This document shows positions 4,648-37,341 of a DNA stretch of 64,000 nt, one piece after another; the stretch's first letter is position 1, and each line of letters opens with the position of its first letter. The notes beneath the pieces are model-generated. The model searched no databases, was not told the origin of the DNA, and saw nothing but the letters and a program-made list of their open reading frames with translations. The DNA lies in assembly GCA_041657385.1 (NCBI GenBank), contig JBBABZ010000004.1:1867-65866 (forward strand), written 5' to 3'. Both the position numbers and the translations under genes were made by a program. Origin of the DNA: Minisyncoccota bacterium (lineage in GTDB: Bacteria > Patescibacteriota > Minisyncoccia > Minisyncoccales > JAQTVQ01).

Positions 4648-6279
4648 TTAAATATCCAGAAGTTTTAATACCTTTTTTCTGTCTGCCGCCCAAAGGAATG
4701 TTGATAAGCGGGGTCCCTGGTCTTTGCCGATCAAAAGGTTATAAACATCTTTAAAGAAAGATTTTTGCAAGGGCATATTGGCTTTGATATCAAGATCAGG
4801 ATTTTTAGGGATGCCGTAGACTATTTCTTCCAATTTTTCAATAGAAGAAGCATCTTGTTCAAGGTGTTTTTTTAATGCCTTGATATGTTCAACAGCTTCC
4901 GGCGCCATTTTTTCTAAATATTCCTTGTTGGCTTCTTCTCTTAAACTGATCATCTGGTCTAGATTGTATATTTCCAGCCAGTTGCGGGCTTTAACCAGCC
5001 TTGATTTTATTGAAAGCGGATCGTAATCGGTTTTTAGCTCGTTAAACAGGCTCGCTAATTTTTCCAGATCCCATTGTATTATTTGTCCTAAAGCAACCGC
5101 TTGCCGGAATGGTATTGGATTAATATATATATCGTTGTTTTCGTTTAGCGTCAGGTCAAGCGTTTGCTTGCGAACAGCATCAAGTTCTCCTTTTTTGTAA
5201 CTTTCGAATTCAGCGTCCAGCTCGCTGTATTGGCGATAGATCTCGCTGTCAAAAGCCAAATTGAAAACGCTGCCAGGGCTCTTGCTCAAATAAAGCCATT
5301 TCAACAATGACGGTTCGTAAATTTCCAAAAGCTGGCCGGGAGTTACCGCGTTGCCTTTTGAGCCGGACATTTTGCCATCCAGCCCCCTTAAGCCGACGAA
5401 TTGATAACCGGCAAAGACCGGCGGTTCGATATTGAATATTTTTTTGGCAATAACGCTTGAAACATCGTAGCTTCCGCCCGGCGAAGCGTGGTCAGCCCCG
5501 CCCGGCTCGAAAACAACGCTCTCTTCTCCCCAGCGCATCGGCCAATCGGTTTTCCAAGCCAGCTTGACGATATGGTCTTTGGTTATGTCTATTTCTTCGG
5601 TTTTTCCGCTTTCCAAACATTGGTAAGTTATTTTATTCTCTCCATCGTAATTTAATATTTTCACGCTGTCTTTTCCCGTCCAGCGCGAATATAAAGATAT
5701 CGGATAATATTCGTTTCTGAACTTTTCCTCATTTATCCCCTTTTCTTCTTTGGCTTTTCCGGACATAAATGACAGTAAGATTTCCGCAATTTCTTTGCGT
5801 TTTTGGAGGGCATGGATGATCAATTTATCGTAACGGCCGGATTTGTATTCATCGGTTTGATAGCGGTATTCCAGTTCGATACCAAGATCTTTCATGGACT
5901 GCTCGAACTTTTTTTGGAAGTATTCGGCGTATGACCCGCCCTTCCCTTCCGGTTCAGGCACCGCGGTCAGCGGCAAGCCTATATATTTAGAAAAAGAAGC
6001 ATTGATATCCAGCGGAACCTTTCTGAACCGGTCAAAATTATCCCAGGAAAAAATCAGCCGGACTTTTTTGCCCGCGGCCTGTAATTGCTTGGCAACGGCA
6101 AGAGATGTCATTACATCGCGGAAGTTGCCGAAATGGACAATGCCCGACGGGCTGATACCCGCGGCGCAGGTGTAAATTTTCTTATCGGGGAAAGCTTTTA
6201 ATACTTTATCGGCAAGGACTTGGCTCCAATGCTGGTTGGTTGATTCGTTTTGCATAGATTTTTTTACCATTAAAATCAT
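4648..6279 (-). CDS. lysK: Lysyl-tRNA synthetase, class I (archaeal type)
   Basis: It has the PSGIVHFGNFRD (HIGH-like) and KMSGSKGN (KMSKS) motifs, a length of 543 aa, and an ATGA start/stop overlap with the upstream gene at 6276-6279. Confidence 0.9.
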   Translation of the reverse strand: MILMVKKSMQNESTNQHWSQVLADKVLKAFPDKKIYTCAAGISPSGIVHFGNFRDVMTSLAVAKQLQAAGKKVRLIFSWDNFDRFRKVPLDINASFSKYIGLPLTAVPEPEGKGGSYAEYFQKKFEQSMKDLGIELEYRYQTDEYKSGRYDKLIIHALQKRKEIAEILLSFMSGKAKEEKGINEEKFRNEYYPISLYSRWTGKDSVKILNYDGENKITYQCLESGKTEEIDITKDHIVKLAWKTDWPMRWGEESVVFEPGGADHASPGGSYDVSSVIAKKIFNIEPPVFAGYQFVGLRGLDGKMSGSKGNAVTPGQLLEIYEPSLLKWLYLSKSPGSVFNLAFDSEIYRQYSELDAEFESYKKGELDAVRKQTLDLTLNENNDIYINPIPFRQAVALGQIIQWDLEKLASLFNELKTDYDPLSIKSRLVKARNWLEIYNLDQMISLREEANKEYLEKMAPEAVEHIKALKKHLEQDASSIEKLEEIVYGIPKNPDLDIKANMPLQKSFFKDVYNLLIGKDQGPRLSTFLWAADRKKVLKLLDI

Positions 6280-31535: not shown

Positions 31536-32552
31536 ATGAAGGAAGTATTGCTCTATAAGAAGCTTGAAAGGGAAAATGTCCAGTGTTTAACCTGTGCGCA
31601 CGGTTGTTTCGTTTTGCCGGGCAAACGCGGCGTTTGCGGCATGAGGGAGAATATTAACGGCCAGTTTTTTGTTTTAAACTATGGTAAAGCCGTGGCTTGC
31701 AACATAGATCCTATCGAAAAAAAGCCCTTGTTCCATTTTTTGCCAGGCACCTCTTCCTTATCAATAGCAGCCGCAGGCTGCAATCTAACTTGTTTGAACT
31801 GCCAAAATTTTGACTTTTCGCAAGGCTGCAAAACATTAACTGAGATTCCCGGAAAAGAAATGCCGCCCGAAGAGATCGTAAAAATGGCTTTAAAAAATAA
31901 GGTTCCTTCCATCTCTTACACTTATACCGAGCCGACTATTTTTTTGGAATATGCTTTGGATACCATGAAGCTGGCTCGAAAAGCCGGACTAAAAAATGTT
32001 TGGGTTTCTAATGGTTTTATGAGCAAAGAATCGGCAGAGTTGGTTCTTCCTCTTTTAGACGCCAGCAACATAGACATTAAAGGTTTTACCGAAGAATTTT
32101 ACCGGCAAAATTGCGGAGCGCATCTGGAGCCGGTTTTGGAAACTTGTAAAATGATGAAAAAGGCGGGCGTTTGGCTGGAAATCACGACTTTGGCAATTCC
32201 CAAGAAAAGCGATTCGCCGGAAATGTTCAAAAAGATCGCTAAATTCATTAAAAGAGAATTGGGAGAAGAAACGCCTTGGCATATCAGCCAATTCAGCGGA
32301 GCCATTTCTTGGAAGCTTCAAAATCTGCCCGATACTCCTGCTAAAAATTTAAAGAGCGCTTATAAGATCGGAAAAGACGCCGGCCTGAAATATGTTTATA
32401 CCGGCAATATTCCCGGGCTTGATTCGGAAAATACTTTTTGCCCGAAATGCAATGAGCTTTGTATTCAGCGCGTCGGCTACAAGATCAGCGACCTTACTCA
32501 AAACGGAGAATGTCCGAAGTGCAAAACGAAATTGGATATTATCTATAAATAA
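31536..32552 (+). CDS. amrS: AmmeMemoRadiSam system radical SAM enzyme
   Basis: It contains CLTCAHGC..GKRGVCGMREN and the CNLTCLNCQN radical SAM motif. Confidence 0.8.
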   Translation: MKEVLLYKKLERENVQCLTCAHGCFVLPGKRGVCGMRENINGQFFVLNYGKAVACNIDPIEKKPLFHFLPGTSSLSIAAAGCNLTCLNCQNFDFSQGCKTLTEIPGKEMPPEEIVKMALKNKVPSISYTYTEPTIFLEYALDTMKLARKAGLKNVWVSNGFMSKESAELVLPLLDASNIDIKGFTEEFYRQNCGAHLEPVLETCKMMKKAGVWLEITTLAIPKKSDSPEMFKKIAKFIKRELGEETPWHISQFSGAISWKLQNLPDTPAKNLKSAYKIGKDAGLKYVYTGNIPGLDSENTFCPKCNELCIQRVGYKISDLTQNGECPKCKTKLDIIYK

Positions 32553-33765: not shown

Positions 33766-34422
33766 ATGATTTCTTTTGCTTGTTTTTCTCCCCATCCGCC
33801 GATATTGTTGCCTTCGGTCGGTTCCGAAGCAGACCGGGCCTTGCTGAAAAATACGATCGGTTCGCTGGACAGCCTTGGCAAGAAGCTTGAAGACAACGGC
33901 CCCGATTTGATCATTATTTCTTCGCCTCATGCCGATTGGGGATTTAATGTGCCTCTTCATTTTCTGGCTAAAAATTTCCAAGGCCAGGTTAAAACTTATC
34001 TTACCGGGCCAGAGTCTCCTAGATTTCATTTCGAAGAAGGCCGGCGTGTTTATACCGAGGCGCATCTTGAGTCCGATTTTAAAAAAGTGGCTTTGATCGC
34101 TTCGGGAGACATGTCCCATTGCTTAAAAGAAGACGGGCCTTACGGCTTTAATCCCGAGGGGCCGAAATTTGATAAGGATTTTCAGGAATTTTTAGTTAAA
34201 AAAGAATTAGATAAGATATTGCAGCTTAATGATACTTATCCTGATGCCGGCGAATGCGGCTTGCGGTCTTTTTCTTTTCTATTAGGAGTATTAGACGCCG
34301 CCAAAGCGGCCTATCAGCCGGGAATTTTATCATACGAAGGGCCATTCGGCGTTGGATATTTAGTTGCGGACTTTAAATTTGAAGATAATAAAATAGAAAG
34401 CAAAACAAATGAAAAAAGCTAG
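33766..34422 (+). CDS. LigB/MEMO-superfamily (class III extradiol dioxygenase-like) protein
   Basis: The N-terminus FACFSPHPPILLPSVG and the IASGDMSHCL motif fit this family. It lies within the AmmeMemoRadiSam neighbourhood. Confidence 0.5.
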   Translation: MISFACFSPHPPILLPSVGSEADRALLKNTIGSLDSLGKKLEDNGPDLIIISSPHADWGFNVPLHFLAKNFQGQVKTYLTGPESPRFHFEEGRRVYTEAHLESDFKKVALIASGDMSHCLKEDGPYGFNPEGPKFDKDFQEFLVKKELDKILQLNDTYPDAGECGLRSFSFLLGVLDAAKAAYQPGILSYEGPFGVGYLVADFKFEDNKIESKTNEKS

Positions 34423-35122
34423 CAATAGAGGGTTGAAAAAAGAAAAAGAGCTGAAGCTTTTATACGAAATTATCCAGACTATTAGTTATAACCTGGACCT
34501 TAAAGAAGTTCTAAGCCGTATTGTCAAAATCGTCAGCTCTGTTACAAAAGCTGATTCTTGTTTTTTATATTTGATCGACGGCGAAAATTTGATATTGCGA
34601 GCTTCTTTAAATCCTAAGCCGCTGGAAATAGGCAATATTAAAATGAAGGTTGGCGAAGGGATCACAGGCTGGGTGGCGGAAAAACAAAAAACCGTGGCGA
34701 TCGCCAAAGAGGCTTATCAAGATAAGCGTTTTAAATTTTTTAACAGCTTGCCTGAAGATAAGTTTGAAGGCATTCTTTCGGTGCCGATGATCTACCGCGA
34801 TAAAGTTTTGGGAGTGATAAACGTCCAGCATTCCAAGCCGCGCAAATATTCAGAAACCGAGATCGTTCTATTTGAGCTTATCGCCAAGGCAACCGGCGGC
34901 GCGATCGATAACGCCTCGCTTTTTTCGGAAAAAGAAGCTTTAAAAGAGGCGTTGGAGACCAGAAAACTTATTGAACGCGCCAAAGGAATTTTAATGAAAG
35001 ATCTCAATATTTCCGAAGAAGAAGCCCATAAGCTTTTGCATAAAAAAAGCATGGACAAAAGGCTGTCCTTGAAGGAAATATCAAATGCAATAATTATTTC
35101 CAGCGACATCAAGAAAGCGTAA
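34409..35122 (+). CDS. GAF-ANTAR RNA-binding antitermination regulator
   Basis: The GAF domain reads VTKADSCFLYLID..GEGITGWVAE..SVPMIYRDKVLGVINVQH. The C-terminal ANTAR domain reads LETRKLIERAKGILMKDLNISEEEAHKLLHKKSMDKRLSLKEISNAII. Confidence 0.85.
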   Translation: MKKASNRGLKKEKELKLLYEIIQTISYNLDLKEVLSRIVKIVSSVTKADSCFLYLIDGENLILRASLNPKPLEIGNIKMKVGEGITGWVAEKQKTVAIAKEAYQDKRFKFFNSLPEDKFEGILSVPMIYRDKVLGVINVQHSKPRKYSETEIVLFELIAKATGGAIDNASLFSEKEALKEALETRKLIERAKGILMKDLNISEEEAHKLLHKKSMDKRLSLKEISNAIIISSDIKKA

Positions 35123-35254
35123 AGCTAAAAGTGTAAAGCGTAAAGTAATAGTGCCTGCCTGCCGGTAGGCAGGTAAAGCTAAAAACAACGAACGAATATT
35201 TTAAGTTTTTCGCTGTTTTTTGCGTTTTTCGCTTTGCACTTTACGCTTTTACTC

Positions 35255-35282
35255 TTGACTCGGACATCCAAATTTATATAAT
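35255..35282 (+). promoter_or_regulatory. Near-consensus sigma70 promoter for glnA (TTGACT-16-TATAAT)
   Basis: TTGACT is at 35255-35260 and TATAAT at 35277-35282. Confidence 0.7.
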
Positions 35283-35295
35283 TACTATATCAATG

Positions 35296-35360
35296 TGGCG
35301 CAATGGCGCGCCAACCTAGACAATGATGTCTCCTAACCTTTCAGGTTTTAGGAGTTTTTT
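35296..35360 (+). promoter_or_regulatory. ANTAR-type dual-hexaloop leader overlapping an intrinsic terminator
   Basis: P1 is TGGCGC-AATGGC-GCGCCA (35296-35313). P2 is AGAC-AATGAT-GTCT (35318-35331). The terminator is CTCCTAACC..GGTT(TT)AGGAG+T6 (35330-35360). Both loops have A at position 1 and G at position 4. Confidence 0.7.
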
Positions 35361-35384
35361 AATTAAAAATAAATTTAACGATTT

Positions 35385-36806
35385 ATGGCTTACGAAGAAA
35401 TAATAGATACTTGTAAAAAACGGGATATAAAATTAGTTGATCTGAAATTTTGCGATCTGCCCGGGACTTGGCAGCATTTTACTTTGCCTTTGGATCAGCT
35501 TGATAAAAAAGCCTTTGAAGAAGGGATCGGTTTTGACGGTTCGAGCATCCGCGGTTTTAAAGAGATTCAGGAAAGCGACATGCTTTTGGTGCCGGATATA
35601 AACACTGTCACGACAGATCCTTTTTCAAAGTTTCCCTTGGCTAGCTTTATCTGCGATGTTTATGAACCGGGCGCAGTGAAAAAAGCGTTCGAGAACGATC
35701 CGCGATTCGTGGCCAAGAAGGCGGAAGAATTTTTAGTTGAAAGCGGTTTAGCCGATAAAGCTTACTTCGGTCCGGAAGCGGAATTTTTTATTTTTGATAA
35801 GGTTAATTTTGGCAGCGGCCCGAATTTTTCTTTTCACGAAATAAAATCAGCCGAGGCTAATTGGGATGCTAAAGAAGACAAAGATCTTCCCGGGAACGGC
35901 CATGGCTATAAGATAAGGAACAAAGAAGGCTACTTTCCCGTCCCGCCGACGGATCAGCTGGCCGACATAAGGAGAGAAATGGTTTTTGAAATGAAAAAGT
36001 TCGGAATAGAGGTGGAAAAAGAGCATCACGAAGTTTCTACCGGCGGCCAGGCGGAAATAGACATTAAATACGATACGCTGAAAAAAATTGCCGATAAAAC
36101 AATGGCTTTTAAATATGTGGTCAAGAATGTAGCTTTCCGCAACGGCAAGACCGCAACCTTTATGCCTAAGCCGATCTGGGGAGACAACGGCTCCGGCATG
36201 CATGTTCATGTTTCCCTTTGGAAAGAAGGAGTTCCCCTTTTCCACGATAAAGGAGGCTACTCGAACCTGAGCGAAATGGCAATTTATTTTATCGGCGGTT
36301 TGCTTAAACACGCTCCTGCCATATTGGCTTTTGCCGCACCGACAACTAATTCTTACAAGCGTCTTGTCCCTGGGTTCGAGGCGCCGGTGAACCTTGCCTA
36401 CTCCGGCAGAAACCGTTCGGCCGCCATTAGGATCCCCGCCTATTCCGACAGTCCCGCGGCCACAAGAATAGAATTTCGCCCGCCTGATCCGTCGGCTAAC
36501 CCATATTTGCTTTTCTCGGCCATGCTTCTGGCCGGTTTGGATGGGGTAAAAAACAAGATCAAGCCCATGGATCCGATAAACGAAAATATTTATAAAATGG
36601 ACAAGAGCAGGGATATCCCACAGGTTCCGGATTCGCTTGATAAAAGCTTGGCCGCTTTGGAAAAGGACAGCGATTTTTTGACTAAAGACGGAGTTTTCGC
36701 CAAAGAGCTGATCGCAACCTGGATCAATTATAAAAAAACTGCGGAATATGATTTTATCCGCACCAGGCCCAGCCCGGCGGAATTCGCACTTTACTACGAT
36801 GTTTAA
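35385..36806 (+). CDS. glnA: Glutamine synthetase type I
   Basis: The 473-aa product contains GFDGSSIRGF, NGSGMHVHVSLW and NSYKRLVPGFEAP. Confidence 0.92.
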   Translation: MAYEEIIDTCKKRDIKLVDLKFCDLPGTWQHFTLPLDQLDKKAFEEGIGFDGSSIRGFKEIQESDMLLVPDINTVTTDPFSKFPLASFICDVYEPGAVKKAFENDPRFVAKKAEEFLVESGLADKAYFGPEAEFFIFDKVNFGSGPNFSFHEIKSAEANWDAKEDKDLPGNGHGYKIRNKEGYFPVPPTDQLADIRREMVFEMKKFGIEVEKEHHEVSTGGQAEIDIKYDTLKKIADKTMAFKYVVKNVAFRNGKTATFMPKPIWGDNGSGMHVHVSLWKEGVPLFHDKGGYSNLSEMAIYFIGGLLKHAPAILAFAAPTTNSYKRLVPGFEAPVNLAYSGRNRSAAIRIPAYSDSPAATRIEFRPPDPSANPYLLFSAMLLAGLDGVKNKIKPMDPINENIYKMDKSRDIPQVPDSLDKSLAALEKDSDFLTKDGVFAKELIATWINYKKTAEYDFIRTRPSPAEFALYYDV

Positions 36807-36825: not shown

Positions 36826-37341
36826 ATGCATCCGTTGGTTGAATTGGCCAGATCGGCTGTTGAAAATTATGCGGCAAACGGCACGGAAATCGCCGTGCCG
36901 TTTTATTTTCCAAAGGATCTGCTTGATAAAAAAGCTGGTGTTTTTGTGACCATTGAAAAAGACAAGGGATTGCGCGGCTGTATCGGGACTTATCTGTCCT
37001 GCCATAAAAATATTGCCGAAGAAACAATCCATAATGCTATTTTAGCTGCTGCGGAAGATTATCGTTTCGGACCGATCGAAAAAGACGAGCTTCCACGTTT
37101 GAGTTTTACTGTTTATATTTTAGGCGAGCCGGAGCTGGTTCGCGGCCAGAAAGAATTGGACCATAAAAAATACGGCGTTATCGTTAAAAGTTTAGATAAA
37201 AAAAGAGTCGGGCTTTTACTGCCCGATTTGAAGGGAGTCAATACGGTTTCCGATCAAATATCGATCGCTTGCGCCAAAGCCGAAATTGATCTTTCGGAGC
37301 AAATAATAATTTATAAATTTACCGTTGAAAAATATCAATGA
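36826..37341 (+). CDS. amrA: AMMECR1-domain protein (AmmeMemoRadiSam system protein A)
   Basis: It contains GVFVTIEKDKGLRGCIGT..DYRFGPI. Confidence 0.8.
   Translation: MHPLVELARSAVENYAANGTEIAVPFYFPKDLLDKKAGVFVTIEKDKGLRGCIGTYLSCHKNIAEETIHNAILAAAEDYRFGPIEKDELPRLSFTVYILGEPELVRGQKELDHKKYGVIVKSLDKKRVGLLLPDLKGVNTVSDQISIACAKAEIDLSEQIIIYKFTVEKYQ

Follow-up and report, generated by a model that had tools for sequence, protein, structure and literature searches.

The question raised by this locus is how a glutamine synthetase gene, glnA, is controlled in a member of the CPR/Patescibacteria, bacteria about whose metabolic regulation, to our knowledge, almost nothing is known. The DNA belongs to a Candidatus Paceibacterota (Patescibacteria/CPR) MAG, in agreement with the CPR-like host proposed in a first-pass annotation, and the whole 64-kb stretch that was analyzed is referred to here as the window. 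A sensor, an RNA target, a promoter, a terminator and the predicted regulated gene all lie inside 2.4 kb of it (Table 1). Judged from the sequence, the locus is probably a switch in which a one-component regulator controls glutamine synthetase by ligand-gated transcription antitermination. A literature search on ANTAR in Patescibacteria/CPR found no relevant paper.

Table 1. Features of the regulator-glnA region, in window coordinates
Feature	Position	Strand	Description
GAF-ANTAR regulator gene	34409–35122	+	237-aa one-component regulator; Pfam
Sigma-70-type promoter of the glnA leader	35255–35282	+	TTGACT 35255–35260, 16-nt spacer, TATAAT 35277–35282
P1 hairpin	35296–35313	+	6-bp stem UGGCGC/GCGCCA, hexaloop AAUGGC (A1, G4)
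P1-P2 linker ACCT	35314–35317	+	4 nt; read from sequence
P2 antiterminator hairpin	35318–35331	+	4-bp stem AGAC/GUCU, hexaloop AAUGAU (A1, G4)
Intrinsic terminator	35330–35360	+	bulged 10-bp stem 35330–35354, CTCCTAACC(T)...GGTT(TT)AGGAG, then U6 (T6 in the DNA) 35355–35360
glnA, type I glutamine synthetase	35385–36806	+	473 aa; predicted regulated gene; Pfam and TIGR00653

The GAF-ANTAR regulator

[quoted passage not shown] At NCBI, an entry with 100% identity to the regulator carries the name 'GAF and ANTAR domain-containing protein [Candidatus Paceibacterota bacterium]', and the gene is the sole ANTAR-coding sequence within the window. The AF2 model of the regulator (pLDDT 77) has a GAF fold, a long helix (residues 149–199) that joins the GAF sensor to the ANTAR domain, and helices at 203–217 and 221–236. 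The long helix runs into a three-helix bundle, as expected of an ANTAR domain, with block pLDDT values of 62–92 in this part. Pfam gives no Response_reg match in the regulator, the N-terminus of which is the GAF domain, and on these grounds the REC-ANTAR two-component type (EutV, GnfR, NitR-like) was ruled out.

The ANTAR domain aligns with those of EutV (6wsh), Rv1626 (1s8n) and NasR (4akk), the last with an E value of 4e-8. Hexaloop contacts in EutV involve 11 residues, Arg-142, Lys-143, Lys-147, Lys-149, Glu-160, Tyr-164, Arg-168, Met-172, Asn-173, Arg-175, and Arg-177 (PMC8934654), which correspond to Arg-185, Lys-186, Arg-190, Lys-192, Glu-203, His-207, His-211, Met-215, Asp-216, Arg-218, and Ser-220 of the regulator. 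Seven of these contacts are retained (Arg-185, Lys-186, Lys-192, Glu-203, Met-215, and Arg-218, plus the conservative exchange of Lys-147 for Arg-190). The essential Met is among them, and of the three α7–α8 loop residues that were mutated together in EutV (Asn-173/Arg-175/Arg-177; PMC8934654), two are kept or conservatively substituted. Tyr-164, which stacks on G4 in EutV, is replaced by His-207 in the regulator and is Tyr or Phe in most relatives. By its domain composition the gene product is a bona fide GAF-ANTAR protein, which is probably dimeric.

The leader of glnA

The identity of the downstream gene as glnA was confirmed by Gln-synt_N and Gln-synt_C matches (436 bits, Pfam) and by a score above the equivalog cut-off of TIGR00653 for type I glutamine synthetase (637 against 429 bits). 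In a promoter scan, the near-consensus promoter reported for its leader came out as the top promoter-like site between 33500 and 37500; it agrees with the consensus at 11 of 12 positions, and 13 nt separate the end of its −10 hexamer from P1. In 17 of 20 related leaders, a promoter with at least 9 of 12 positions ends 5–13 nt ahead of P1. Shine-Dalgarno sequences are barely used in this genome (8 of 56 ORFs, against a background of 14%).

P1 starts 173 nt after the end of the regulator gene. Direct reading of the sequence places P1, the 4-nt spacer, P2 and the terminator exactly where the first-pass annotation had them, and the 2-nt overlap that it noted between the 3′ arm of P2 (35328–35331) and the 5′ arm of the terminator consists of C35330 and U35331. 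Both loops are hexaloops whose first base is A and whose fourth is G, again as annotated. With two adjacent A1/G4 hexaloop hairpins and a P2 3′ arm that overlaps an intrinsic terminator, the leader bears, at the level of its primary and predicted secondary structure, the published ANTAR target signature. RNAfold predicts P1 and the terminator for the full leader (−21.5 kcal/mol, z = −2.9), the terminator being present in the minimum free energy and centroid structures alike, and P1 and P2 for the leader cut before the terminator (−14.5 kcal/mol), so that P2 is formed in the predicted folds only when the terminator is absent. The 2-nt bulge of the leader terminator caused a simple terminator scan to overlook it, whereas RNAfold recovered it. 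Terminator ends based on T-runs fall short in the window and in related locus L003 (internal UUUU), and the window terminator was taken from RNAfold.

The position of the hairpins also bears on the level at which an ANTAR protein would act. In actinobacteria, ANTAR RNAs overlapping ribosome-binding sites or start codons have been reported (PMC8164766; bioRxiv 10.1101/660928), and control of translation or mRNA stability has been proposed for many actinobacterial ANTAR targets. The protein could likewise bind the glnA leader and act mainly at these levels rather than on termination. Here, however, P2 shares sequence with a GC-rich, U-tailed hairpin rather than with the start region, the glnA ATG (35385) lies 24 nt past the U-tract, the terminator is kept in every related leader, and Shine-Dalgarno sequences find little use. 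Action on translation or stability is thus very unlikely, and control of termination is the preferred reading.

Conservation and covariation of the leader

The same leader is present directly 5′ of glnA in 15 related loci (L001–L009, L020, L022, L024, L026, L027, and L029), and the overlapping P2/terminator arrangement is kept in all 15. The overlap comprises the full GUCU arm in L005, L006, L008, L009, L022, L024, L026, L027, and L029, compared with only 2 nt in the window, and in most of the more distant relatives the whole GUCU arm is likewise common to P2 and the terminator. The leader remains with glnA where another gene intervenes, a 730-aa gene on the opposite strand in L005, and is offset from the regulator gene by 2312–2960 nt in L005, L006, L007, and L020.

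Covariation was counted in 36 related leaders on a linker-less alignment of P1 (6 bp) and P2 (4 bp). Whole-leader MAFFT alignments misplaced the outer two P1 pairs because linker lengths vary, and the covariance models were therefore restricted to the inner 4 + 4 pairs. Compensatory changes occur at five of the six P1 pairs, with a P1 covariation score of 0.63 compared with 0.17 after shuffling and 0.10–0.16 with partners slid. Pairing was 95%, against 73% in shuffles and 29–50% with slid partners, percentages inflated by the preselection of hairpins for stems of at least 4 bp. In P1, the closing C-G pair is invariant. G4 is invariant in both loops, and by a hand count of alignment rows A1 is found in 32 of 36 P1 loops and 28 of 36 P2 loops. 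The P2 core GAC......GUC is nearly invariant, and because P2 hardly varies it gives almost no covariation evidence.

Covariance model R2, from which the window and its closest relatives L001–L003 were left out, finds the window leader at 38.6 bits (E about 2e-7) as its single hit in 64 kb, the runner-up scoring 10.6 bits (E 0.87). Other covariance-model matches in the window reach at most 13 bits, and no further ANTAR targets were found there. In a hairpin scan of both strands, the leader is also the sole site in the 64 kb that combines paired A..G.. hexaloop hairpins, stems of 6 and 4 bp, and a terminator. Folding, a covariance model and a search of relatives had been put forward in the first-pass annotation as checks on the leader, and the outcome of each supports it. 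Among 99 regulator-anchored loci the covariance models gave 35 hits, all downstream of the regulator and on the same strand. Distant GAF-ANTAR loci (38–47% identity; many soil contigs as well as L016–L019) are mostly without a detectable leader within the flank, and may have other targets or divergent motifs.

Rfam gives no match at the gathering threshold in the whole window, and at E values up to 10 the region 35100–35420 gives spurious miRNA, snoRNA, and lncRNA matches only. A glutamine riboswitch (glnA RNA) or another Rfam cis-regulator was ruled out on this basis. The hairpins could still be incidental, representing the terminator of the upstream gene next to the glnA promoter, or could form a protein-independent riboswitch or attenuator, since there is no Rfam family for ANTAR target RNA to confirm the element and the P2 stem is short. 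However, the terminator sits 3′ of the promoter rather than 5′ of it, the leader stays with glnA where the regulator is apart, P1 covaries while the A1 and G4 loop positions are fixed, and in at least 35 loci the motif recurs close to a GAF-ANTAR gene, without exception on the same strand. Together with the Rfam results, these observations make an incidental or protein-independent origin hardly credible, and they favor the ANTAR target as the reading of the leader.

The leaders of more distant GAF-ANTAR loci precede genes for Amt transporters, a glutamine-dependent NAD synthetase and a Peripla_BP_5 periplasmic binding protein, and every target of the family that could be identified is a nitrogen-assimilation gene. 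No amt or glnB was found in the 64-kb window by tblastn.

The GAF domain and its possible ligand

GAF domains as a class bind diverse ligands. For the GAF domain of the regulator, phmmer places 3e0y and two PtsP GAF domains, 3ci6 (E 5e-20) and 3trc (E 6e-14), at the top of the PDB sequence matches, with 26–30% identity to the PtsP domains. The N-termini of the NCBIfam PtsP and NifA models match the regulator; the PtsP model (PRK11061) is matched at positions 3–158 (E 1.4e-19), a partial match that is, as expected, below the whole-protein cut-off. PtsP GAF structures also occupy ranks 1–3 in Foldseek, with TM values of 0.83–0.85 for 3ci6 and 3trc. In sequence and modeled fold, the domain is closest to the GAF domain of PtsP/EI-Ntr. 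Because the EI-Ntr GAF domain is reported to bind glutamine, reporting nitrogen status (PMC4848567), this resemblance makes glutamine or 2-oxoglutarate a plausible signal for the regulator by analogy.

The same antitermination by regulator and leader could respond to another cue (for example a cyclic nucleotide, c-di-GMP, the redox state, or a different metabolite), or the GAF domain could be a dimerization module only, with the signal arriving via a partner protein. The diversity of GAF ligands is in line with this, as are the cAMP-bound Lcd1 (5w10) and cGMP phosphodiesterases among the sequence and fold matches. The ANTAR protein NasT of Pseudomonas putida is reported to be modulated by c-di-GMP (PMC10783516), and GAF-ANTAR, although among the commonest ANTAR architectures, has no characterized member in the literature (PMC3369931, PMC7496416). 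Against this, the nearest GAF domains by sequence and structure are specifically of the PtsP type, and the restriction of identifiable family targets to nitrogen assimilation makes a nitrogen-status metabolite the most economical signal. We consider a different cue or a purely dimerizing GAF domain unlikely, and prefer a nitrogen-status metabolite.

Proposed mechanism

Transcription would start from the strong promoter, a few nucleotides upstream of P1. By default the nascent leader is predicted to fold into P1 and the terminator, and RNA polymerase would halt before glnA. Once active, the GAF-ANTAR protein, probably as a dimer, would bind both A..G.. hexaloops through its ANTAR domains and stabilize P2, which would sequester C35330 and U35331 and allow the polymerase to read through into glnA. 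With these two nucleotides held by P2, the two base-most terminator pairs, next to the U-tract, could not form; because the overlap in the window is only 2 nt, mutual exclusion would hinge on blocking these two pairs. Nitrogen status is the most likely input of the GAF domain, which is of the PtsP/EI-Ntr and NifA type, and low glutamine or high 2-oxoglutarate may switch the protein on, such that glutamine synthetase would be made under nitrogen limitation.

A broader proposal, which we put forward tentatively and think somewhat more apt to fail than to hold, is direct binding of glutamine and/or 2-oxoglutarate by the PtsP-like GAF domain, which would make the 237-aa protein a self-contained, PII- and NtrBC-independent nitrogen-status sensor that sets glutamine synthetase levels in genome-reduced Patescibacteria. 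GAF-ANTAR proteins and 'AC-hexaloop-GU' leaders would then form a widespread, hitherto undescribed nitrogen regulon (glnA, amt, nadE, and a urea/amide binding protein) in several uncultivated phyla.

The locus adds a clean, conserved case to a known type of nitrogen switch rather than defining a new one. It offers a compact test case for the uncharacterized GAF-ANTAR class, natural variants by the dozen provide a ready-made mutational series, and the PtsP-type GAF domain gives a concrete ligand hypothesis (glutamine or 2-oxoglutarate) that can be tested in vitro without culture. If this hypothesis is confirmed, it would add a third signal-input logic for ANTAR antitermination, beside phosphorylation and NIT/LOV domains, and a minimal nitrogen-sensing part for synthetic biology.

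Comparison with known systems

The paradigm for ANTAR proteins is the Enterococcus faecalis pair EutV/EutW, together with the eut leaders (Ramesh et al. 2012, PMC3369931; Walshe et al. 2022, PMC8934654). The regulator shares the ANTAR output domain and, counting one conservative exchange, seven of the 11 RNA-contact residues, though not the G4-stacking Tyr, and the leaders share two A1/G4 hexaloop hairpins with P2 overlapping an intrinsic terminator. In contrast to EutV, which has a phosphorylated receiver domain and a partner kinase and controls ethanolamine utilization genes, the regulator has a fused GAF domain, is of the one-component type and is predicted to control glnA. The GAF-ANTAR leaders also fix the loop-closing pairs (AC...GU), with P2 almost invariant as GAC/GUC.

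Predicted ANTAR leaders 5′ of glutamine synthetase genes have been catalogued in Firmicutes and others, for example in Alkaliphilus (Amet_3386/3385) and Caldicellulosiruptor (Ramesh 2012 Table S2, PMC3369931), and a further source names Clostridium NitR as an antiterminator of glnA (PMC4676874). There, as here, an ANTAR target with an overlapping terminator lies directly 5′ of the glutamine synthetase gene and the ANTAR regulator gene adjoins. The regulators in those systems are, where annotated, receiver-domain ANTAR proteins, whereas the present one has a PtsP-like GAF domain, is encoded 5′ of glnA outside the attenuated transcript and belongs to a Patescibacteria MAG. GnfR of Geobacter sulfurreducens, a REC-ANTAR protein that acts on the terminator-containing leaders of nifH, glnK, and amtB (PMC2995071), is similarly an ANTAR antiterminator of nitrogen-gene leaders but is a two-component response regulator of a nitrogen-fixation regulon.

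The one-component form is found in NasR (NIT-ANTAR) of Klebsiella oxytoca, in which a ligand-binding domain gates binding to the two-hexaloop leader of a nitrogen-assimilation operon (PMC7496416, PMC12591593). In NasR, however, the NIT domain binds nitrate or nitrite and the target is nasF, in place of the GAF domain and glnA of this locus. The PtsP/EI-Ntr GAF domain, the closest solved GAF domain, controls a PEP-dependent phosphotransferase, whereas the output attached to its distant counterpart in this locus is an ANTAR RNA-binding domain.

The glnA leader and its folding

On direct reading of 34200-35700, the promoter, the two hexaloop hairpins (P1 and P2) and the terminator of the glnA leader all lie at the coordinates assigned by the first-pass annotation. 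With 11 of 12 consensus positions matched, the promoter ranks first among the sigma-70-like sites of a 4-kb scan. For the full leader the predicted fold consists of P1 and the terminator (-21.5 kcal/mol, z = -2.9, with 1 of 200 shuffles equally good), and for the RNA cut before the terminator it consists of P1 and P2 (-14.5 kcal/mol); in these models the two folds are the mutually exclusive states required of an ANTAR switch. P2 and the terminator overlap by two nucleotides only, C35330 and U35331, which form the two terminator pairs closest to the U-tract. The closest relatives (L001 4891-4981, L002 4866-4952 and L003 about 4825-4925) carry three hairpins before the terminator, compared with two in the window, and all three are hexalooped in L002 (AAUGGC, AAAGCA and AUUGAU). 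The middle hairpin appears to have been lost, or never gained, in the window leader.

Features of the regulator-glnA region in window coordinates
Feature	Position	Strand	Reading
AmmeMemoRadiSam neighbours of the regulator-glnA pair	31536-32552, 33766-34422, 36826-37341		
Regulator ORF	34409-35122		GAF-ANTAR protein, 237 aa
Overlap of regulator ATG with stop end of LigB-like ORF	34409-34422		14 nt
His207 of the regulator	35027-35029		
Spacer hairpin	35113-35250		regulator stop (35122) to glnA -35 box
GC hairpin within the spacer	35154-35173		
glnA promoter	35255-35260, 35277-35282	+	TTGACT, 16 nt, TATAAT; direct reading
P1	35296-35313	+	UGGCGC-AAUGGC-GCGCCA; direct reading
Linker P1-P2		+	ACCU; direct reading
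P2	35318-35331	+	AGAC-AAUGAU-GUCU; direct reading
Terminator	35330-35354, then U6 35355-35360	+	bulged hairpin CUCCUAACC(U)...GGUU(UU)AGGAG
glnA start codon	35385	+	ATG; direct reading
glnA ORF	35385-36806		

A script search of both strands of the 64-kb window for two adjacent A..G.. hexaloop hairpins returned 19 candidates, with stems of 6 bp and 4 bp plus a terminator found only at 35296-35331. Because the Rfam search yielded no family for the dual-hexaloop ANTAR target motif, covariance models were built from related leaders. A leave-out model, trained on these leaders minus the window and its three nearest relatives, recovered 35296-35333 at 38.6 bits (E about 2e-7), with no other site in the 64 kb above 10.6 bits.

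Conservation and covariation of the leader

The first-pass annotation had proposed looking for the same leader 5' of glnA in relatives and for covariation within its hairpins; the leader was found there, and covariation was seen in P1. Loci retrieved by regulator homologues comprised 19 genome loci and 80 metagenome loci, and glnA was located by tblastn in L001-L009, L020, L022, L024, L026, L027, L029 and L055. Except in L055, each of these loci has the same arrangement within the 100-250 nt 5' of glnA, giving 15 related loci with the conserved order of promoter, P1 hexaloop hairpin, (A/G)GAC-hexaloop-GUC(U) hairpin and overlapping U-tailed terminator. The leader tracks glnA and not the regulator: in L005, L006, L007 and L020 it lies 2.3-3.0 kb from the regulator, yet immediately 5' of glnA, and in L005 a 730-aa opposite-strand gene separates the regulator from the leader and glnA. 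All 35 covariance-model matches (E up to 1; 619 kb of loci) are downstream of the regulator and on the same strand, and the leader is present at every locus having a regulator at least 50% identical and enough flank, the exception being L010 with 530 nt of flank only. In 17 of 20 leaders, P1 lies 5-13 nt after the end of a promoter that matches 9 or more of 12 positions, so that the leader forms the 5' end of a separate transcript. No leader was detectable in the 3.3-kb downstream flank of the Omnitrophota / Planctomycetia loci L016, L017 and L018. These three loci encode two tandem GAF-ANTAR paralogues (e.g. L016 4064-4534 and 4604-5227).

P1 varies in sequence while remaining paired (UGGCGC/GCGCCA, CGGUUC/GAACUG, CCAAAC/GUUUGG, AAGCAC/GUGCUU, UCUUGC/GCAAGA and CUUUGC/GCAAAG). 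In a linker-less alignment of P1 (6 bp) and P2 (4 bp) from 36 leaders, compensatory double changes occur at 5 of the 6 P1 pairs, and 95% of cells are paired, compared with 73% after shuffling and 29-50% with partners slid, the paired percentage being inflated by preselection of hairpins for at least 4 pairs. P2 carries little covariation information because it is almost invariant. The G at position 4 (G4) of both loops and the loop-closing C-G pair are invariant in this alignment, and by row count the A at position 1 (A1) occurs in 32 of 36 P1 loops and 28 of 36 P2 loops.

More distant leader-bearing loci, whose GAF-ANTAR regulators are 44-61% identical, carry other genes 3' of the leader. These encode Amt ammonium transporters (L021, L023 and L096), glutamine-dependent NAD synthetases with CN_hydrolase and NAD_synthase domains by Pfam (L064 and L071), proteins that are NAD-synthetase-like by sequence inspection (L082, L087, L090 and L094), a Peripla_BP_5 binding protein (L086) and unannotated secreted or porin-like proteins (L068, L071 and L082). 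L071, L082 and L099 have a tandem pair of attenuators. In the Staskawiczbacteria loci L013 (4755-5108) and L014 (4757-5116), the promoter, leader and terminator lie 3' of the regulator gene and are followed, instead of glnA, by a small Cys-rich ORF (75-82 aa) with no Pfam match. The nitrogen theme of these leaders matches that of ANTAR targets generally (Ramesh et al. 2012, PMC3369931).

The regulator and glnA proteins

The GAF-ANTAR fusion, glnA identity and CPR-like host proposed in the first-pass annotation were all upheld. Pfam assigns the regulator a GAF_2 domain at residues 29-167 (67 bits) and an ANTAR domain at residues 176-229 (75 bits versus a cut-off of 27), and it assigns Gln-synt_N plus Gln-synt_C (436 bits) to the glnA product, which also scores 637 bits, above the cut-off of the type I GS equivalog TIGR00653. 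A database protein identical to the regulator carries the name 'GAF and ANTAR domain-containing protein [Candidatus Paceibacterota bacterium]', and the CPR assignment is therefore right. The window contains no second ANTAR gene. In an AF2 model (pLDDT 77) the regulator comprises a GAF fold, one long helix (149-199) and two further helices, a predicted arrangement that is the known ANTAR layout.

The ANTAR domain can be aligned with EutV, Rv1626 and NasR, and the hexaloop-contact residues of EutV (Walshe et al. 2022, PMC8934654) were mapped onto it. By alignment, R142, K143, K147 and K149 of EutV correspond to R185, K186, R190 and K192; E160, Y164, R168 and M172 to E203, H207, H211 and M215; and N173, R175 and R177 to D216, R218 and S220. 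Judged from this alignment, the regulator appears to retain the essential Met, together with most of the residues that coordinate G4. His207 replaces Tyr164, the residue of EutV that stacks on loop G4; P0006 and P0014, the nearest relatives, likewise have His at this position, and the remaining 15 aligned homologues have Tyr or Phe.

Genomic surroundings

The overlap of the regulator ATG with the upstream LigB-like ORF suggests that the regulator is co-transcribed or translationally coupled with that ORF, rather than expressed from its own promoter. The neighbouring genes include a radical SAM enzyme (TIGR04337, 337 bits versus a cut-off of 220) and protein A (AMMECR1; TIGR04335, 110.6 bits versus a cut-off of 99), and the LigB-family ORF, to which no NCBIfam model matched, sits between them. 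Neither amt nor glnB is present in the 64-kb window. The spacer between regulator and glnA folds as a single long hairpin with imperfect pairing (-53.7 kcal/mol, z = -5.9, with 0 of 200 shuffles equally good), in which short GTAAAGC(G)TAAA repeats and the corresponding complements surround a GC hairpin; no U-run lies 3' of the long hairpin. It could serve the regulator gene as a terminator or insulator, or could represent a small palindromic repeat; in relatives this spacer contains low-complexity repeats of other kinds. The window has a GC content of 39.7%, and Shine-Dalgarno sequences appear scarce in the genome, with an SD-like 4-mer at -20..-4 in 8 of 56 long ORFs of the window versus a 14% background and none in this interval of glnA.

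Candidate signal and proposed mechanism

Among PDB sequences the GAF domain best matches 3e0y, a Geobacter protein of unknown function, and the PtsP (EI-Ntr) GAF domains 3ci6 and 3trc, the latter two also ranking top in Foldseek (TM 0.83-0.85). In NCBIfam it matches the PtsP and NifA models at their N-terminal ends. The GAF domain of NifA binds 2-oxoglutarate, and in E. coli EI-Ntr the effect of 2-oxoglutarate is opposite to that of glutamine. Binding of glutamine to EI-Ntr's GAF domain suppresses autophosphorylation (PMC4848567). By analogy, at 26-30% identity, the regulator would sense a nitrogen signal through its GAF domain, probably low glutamine or high 2-oxoglutarate.

By default, transcription would stop at the U-tract (35355-35360). 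In the active state, a dimeric GAF-ANTAR protein would bind the P1 and P2 loops and hold P2, which would block the base of the terminator and allow the polymerase to read into glnA.

Relation to known systems

The dual-hexaloop antiterminator was first defined for EutV, NasR and AmiR. The one-component ANTAR forms characterized by 2020 were NasR and PAL only (PMC7496416), and for GAF-ANTAR proteins 'no specific examples ... have been characterized' (PMC3369931). In the searchable literature we found no description of a characterized GAF-ANTAR protein, of the PtsP-like nature of the regulator's GAF domain, or of an ANTAR system in Patescibacteria. ANTAR leaders have been predicted bioinformatically 5' of many nitrogen genes, including 'synthase enzymes for glutamate, glutamine' (PMC3369931). 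Antitermination of glnA by ANTAR proteins is a known kind of system, since Table S2 of that study names glutamine synthetase 25 times (e.g. Alkaliphilus Amet_3386 with the ANTAR gene Amet_3385), the accompanying commentary makes the same statement on ANTAR leaders and glutamine synthetase, and PMC4676874 refers to NitR of clostridia as an antiterminator of glnA. In some Firmicute glnA-ANTAR pairs the placement of the regulator differs, whereas here it lies upstream of, and outside, the attenuated transcript and is therefore not autoregulated by the glnA-leader terminator.
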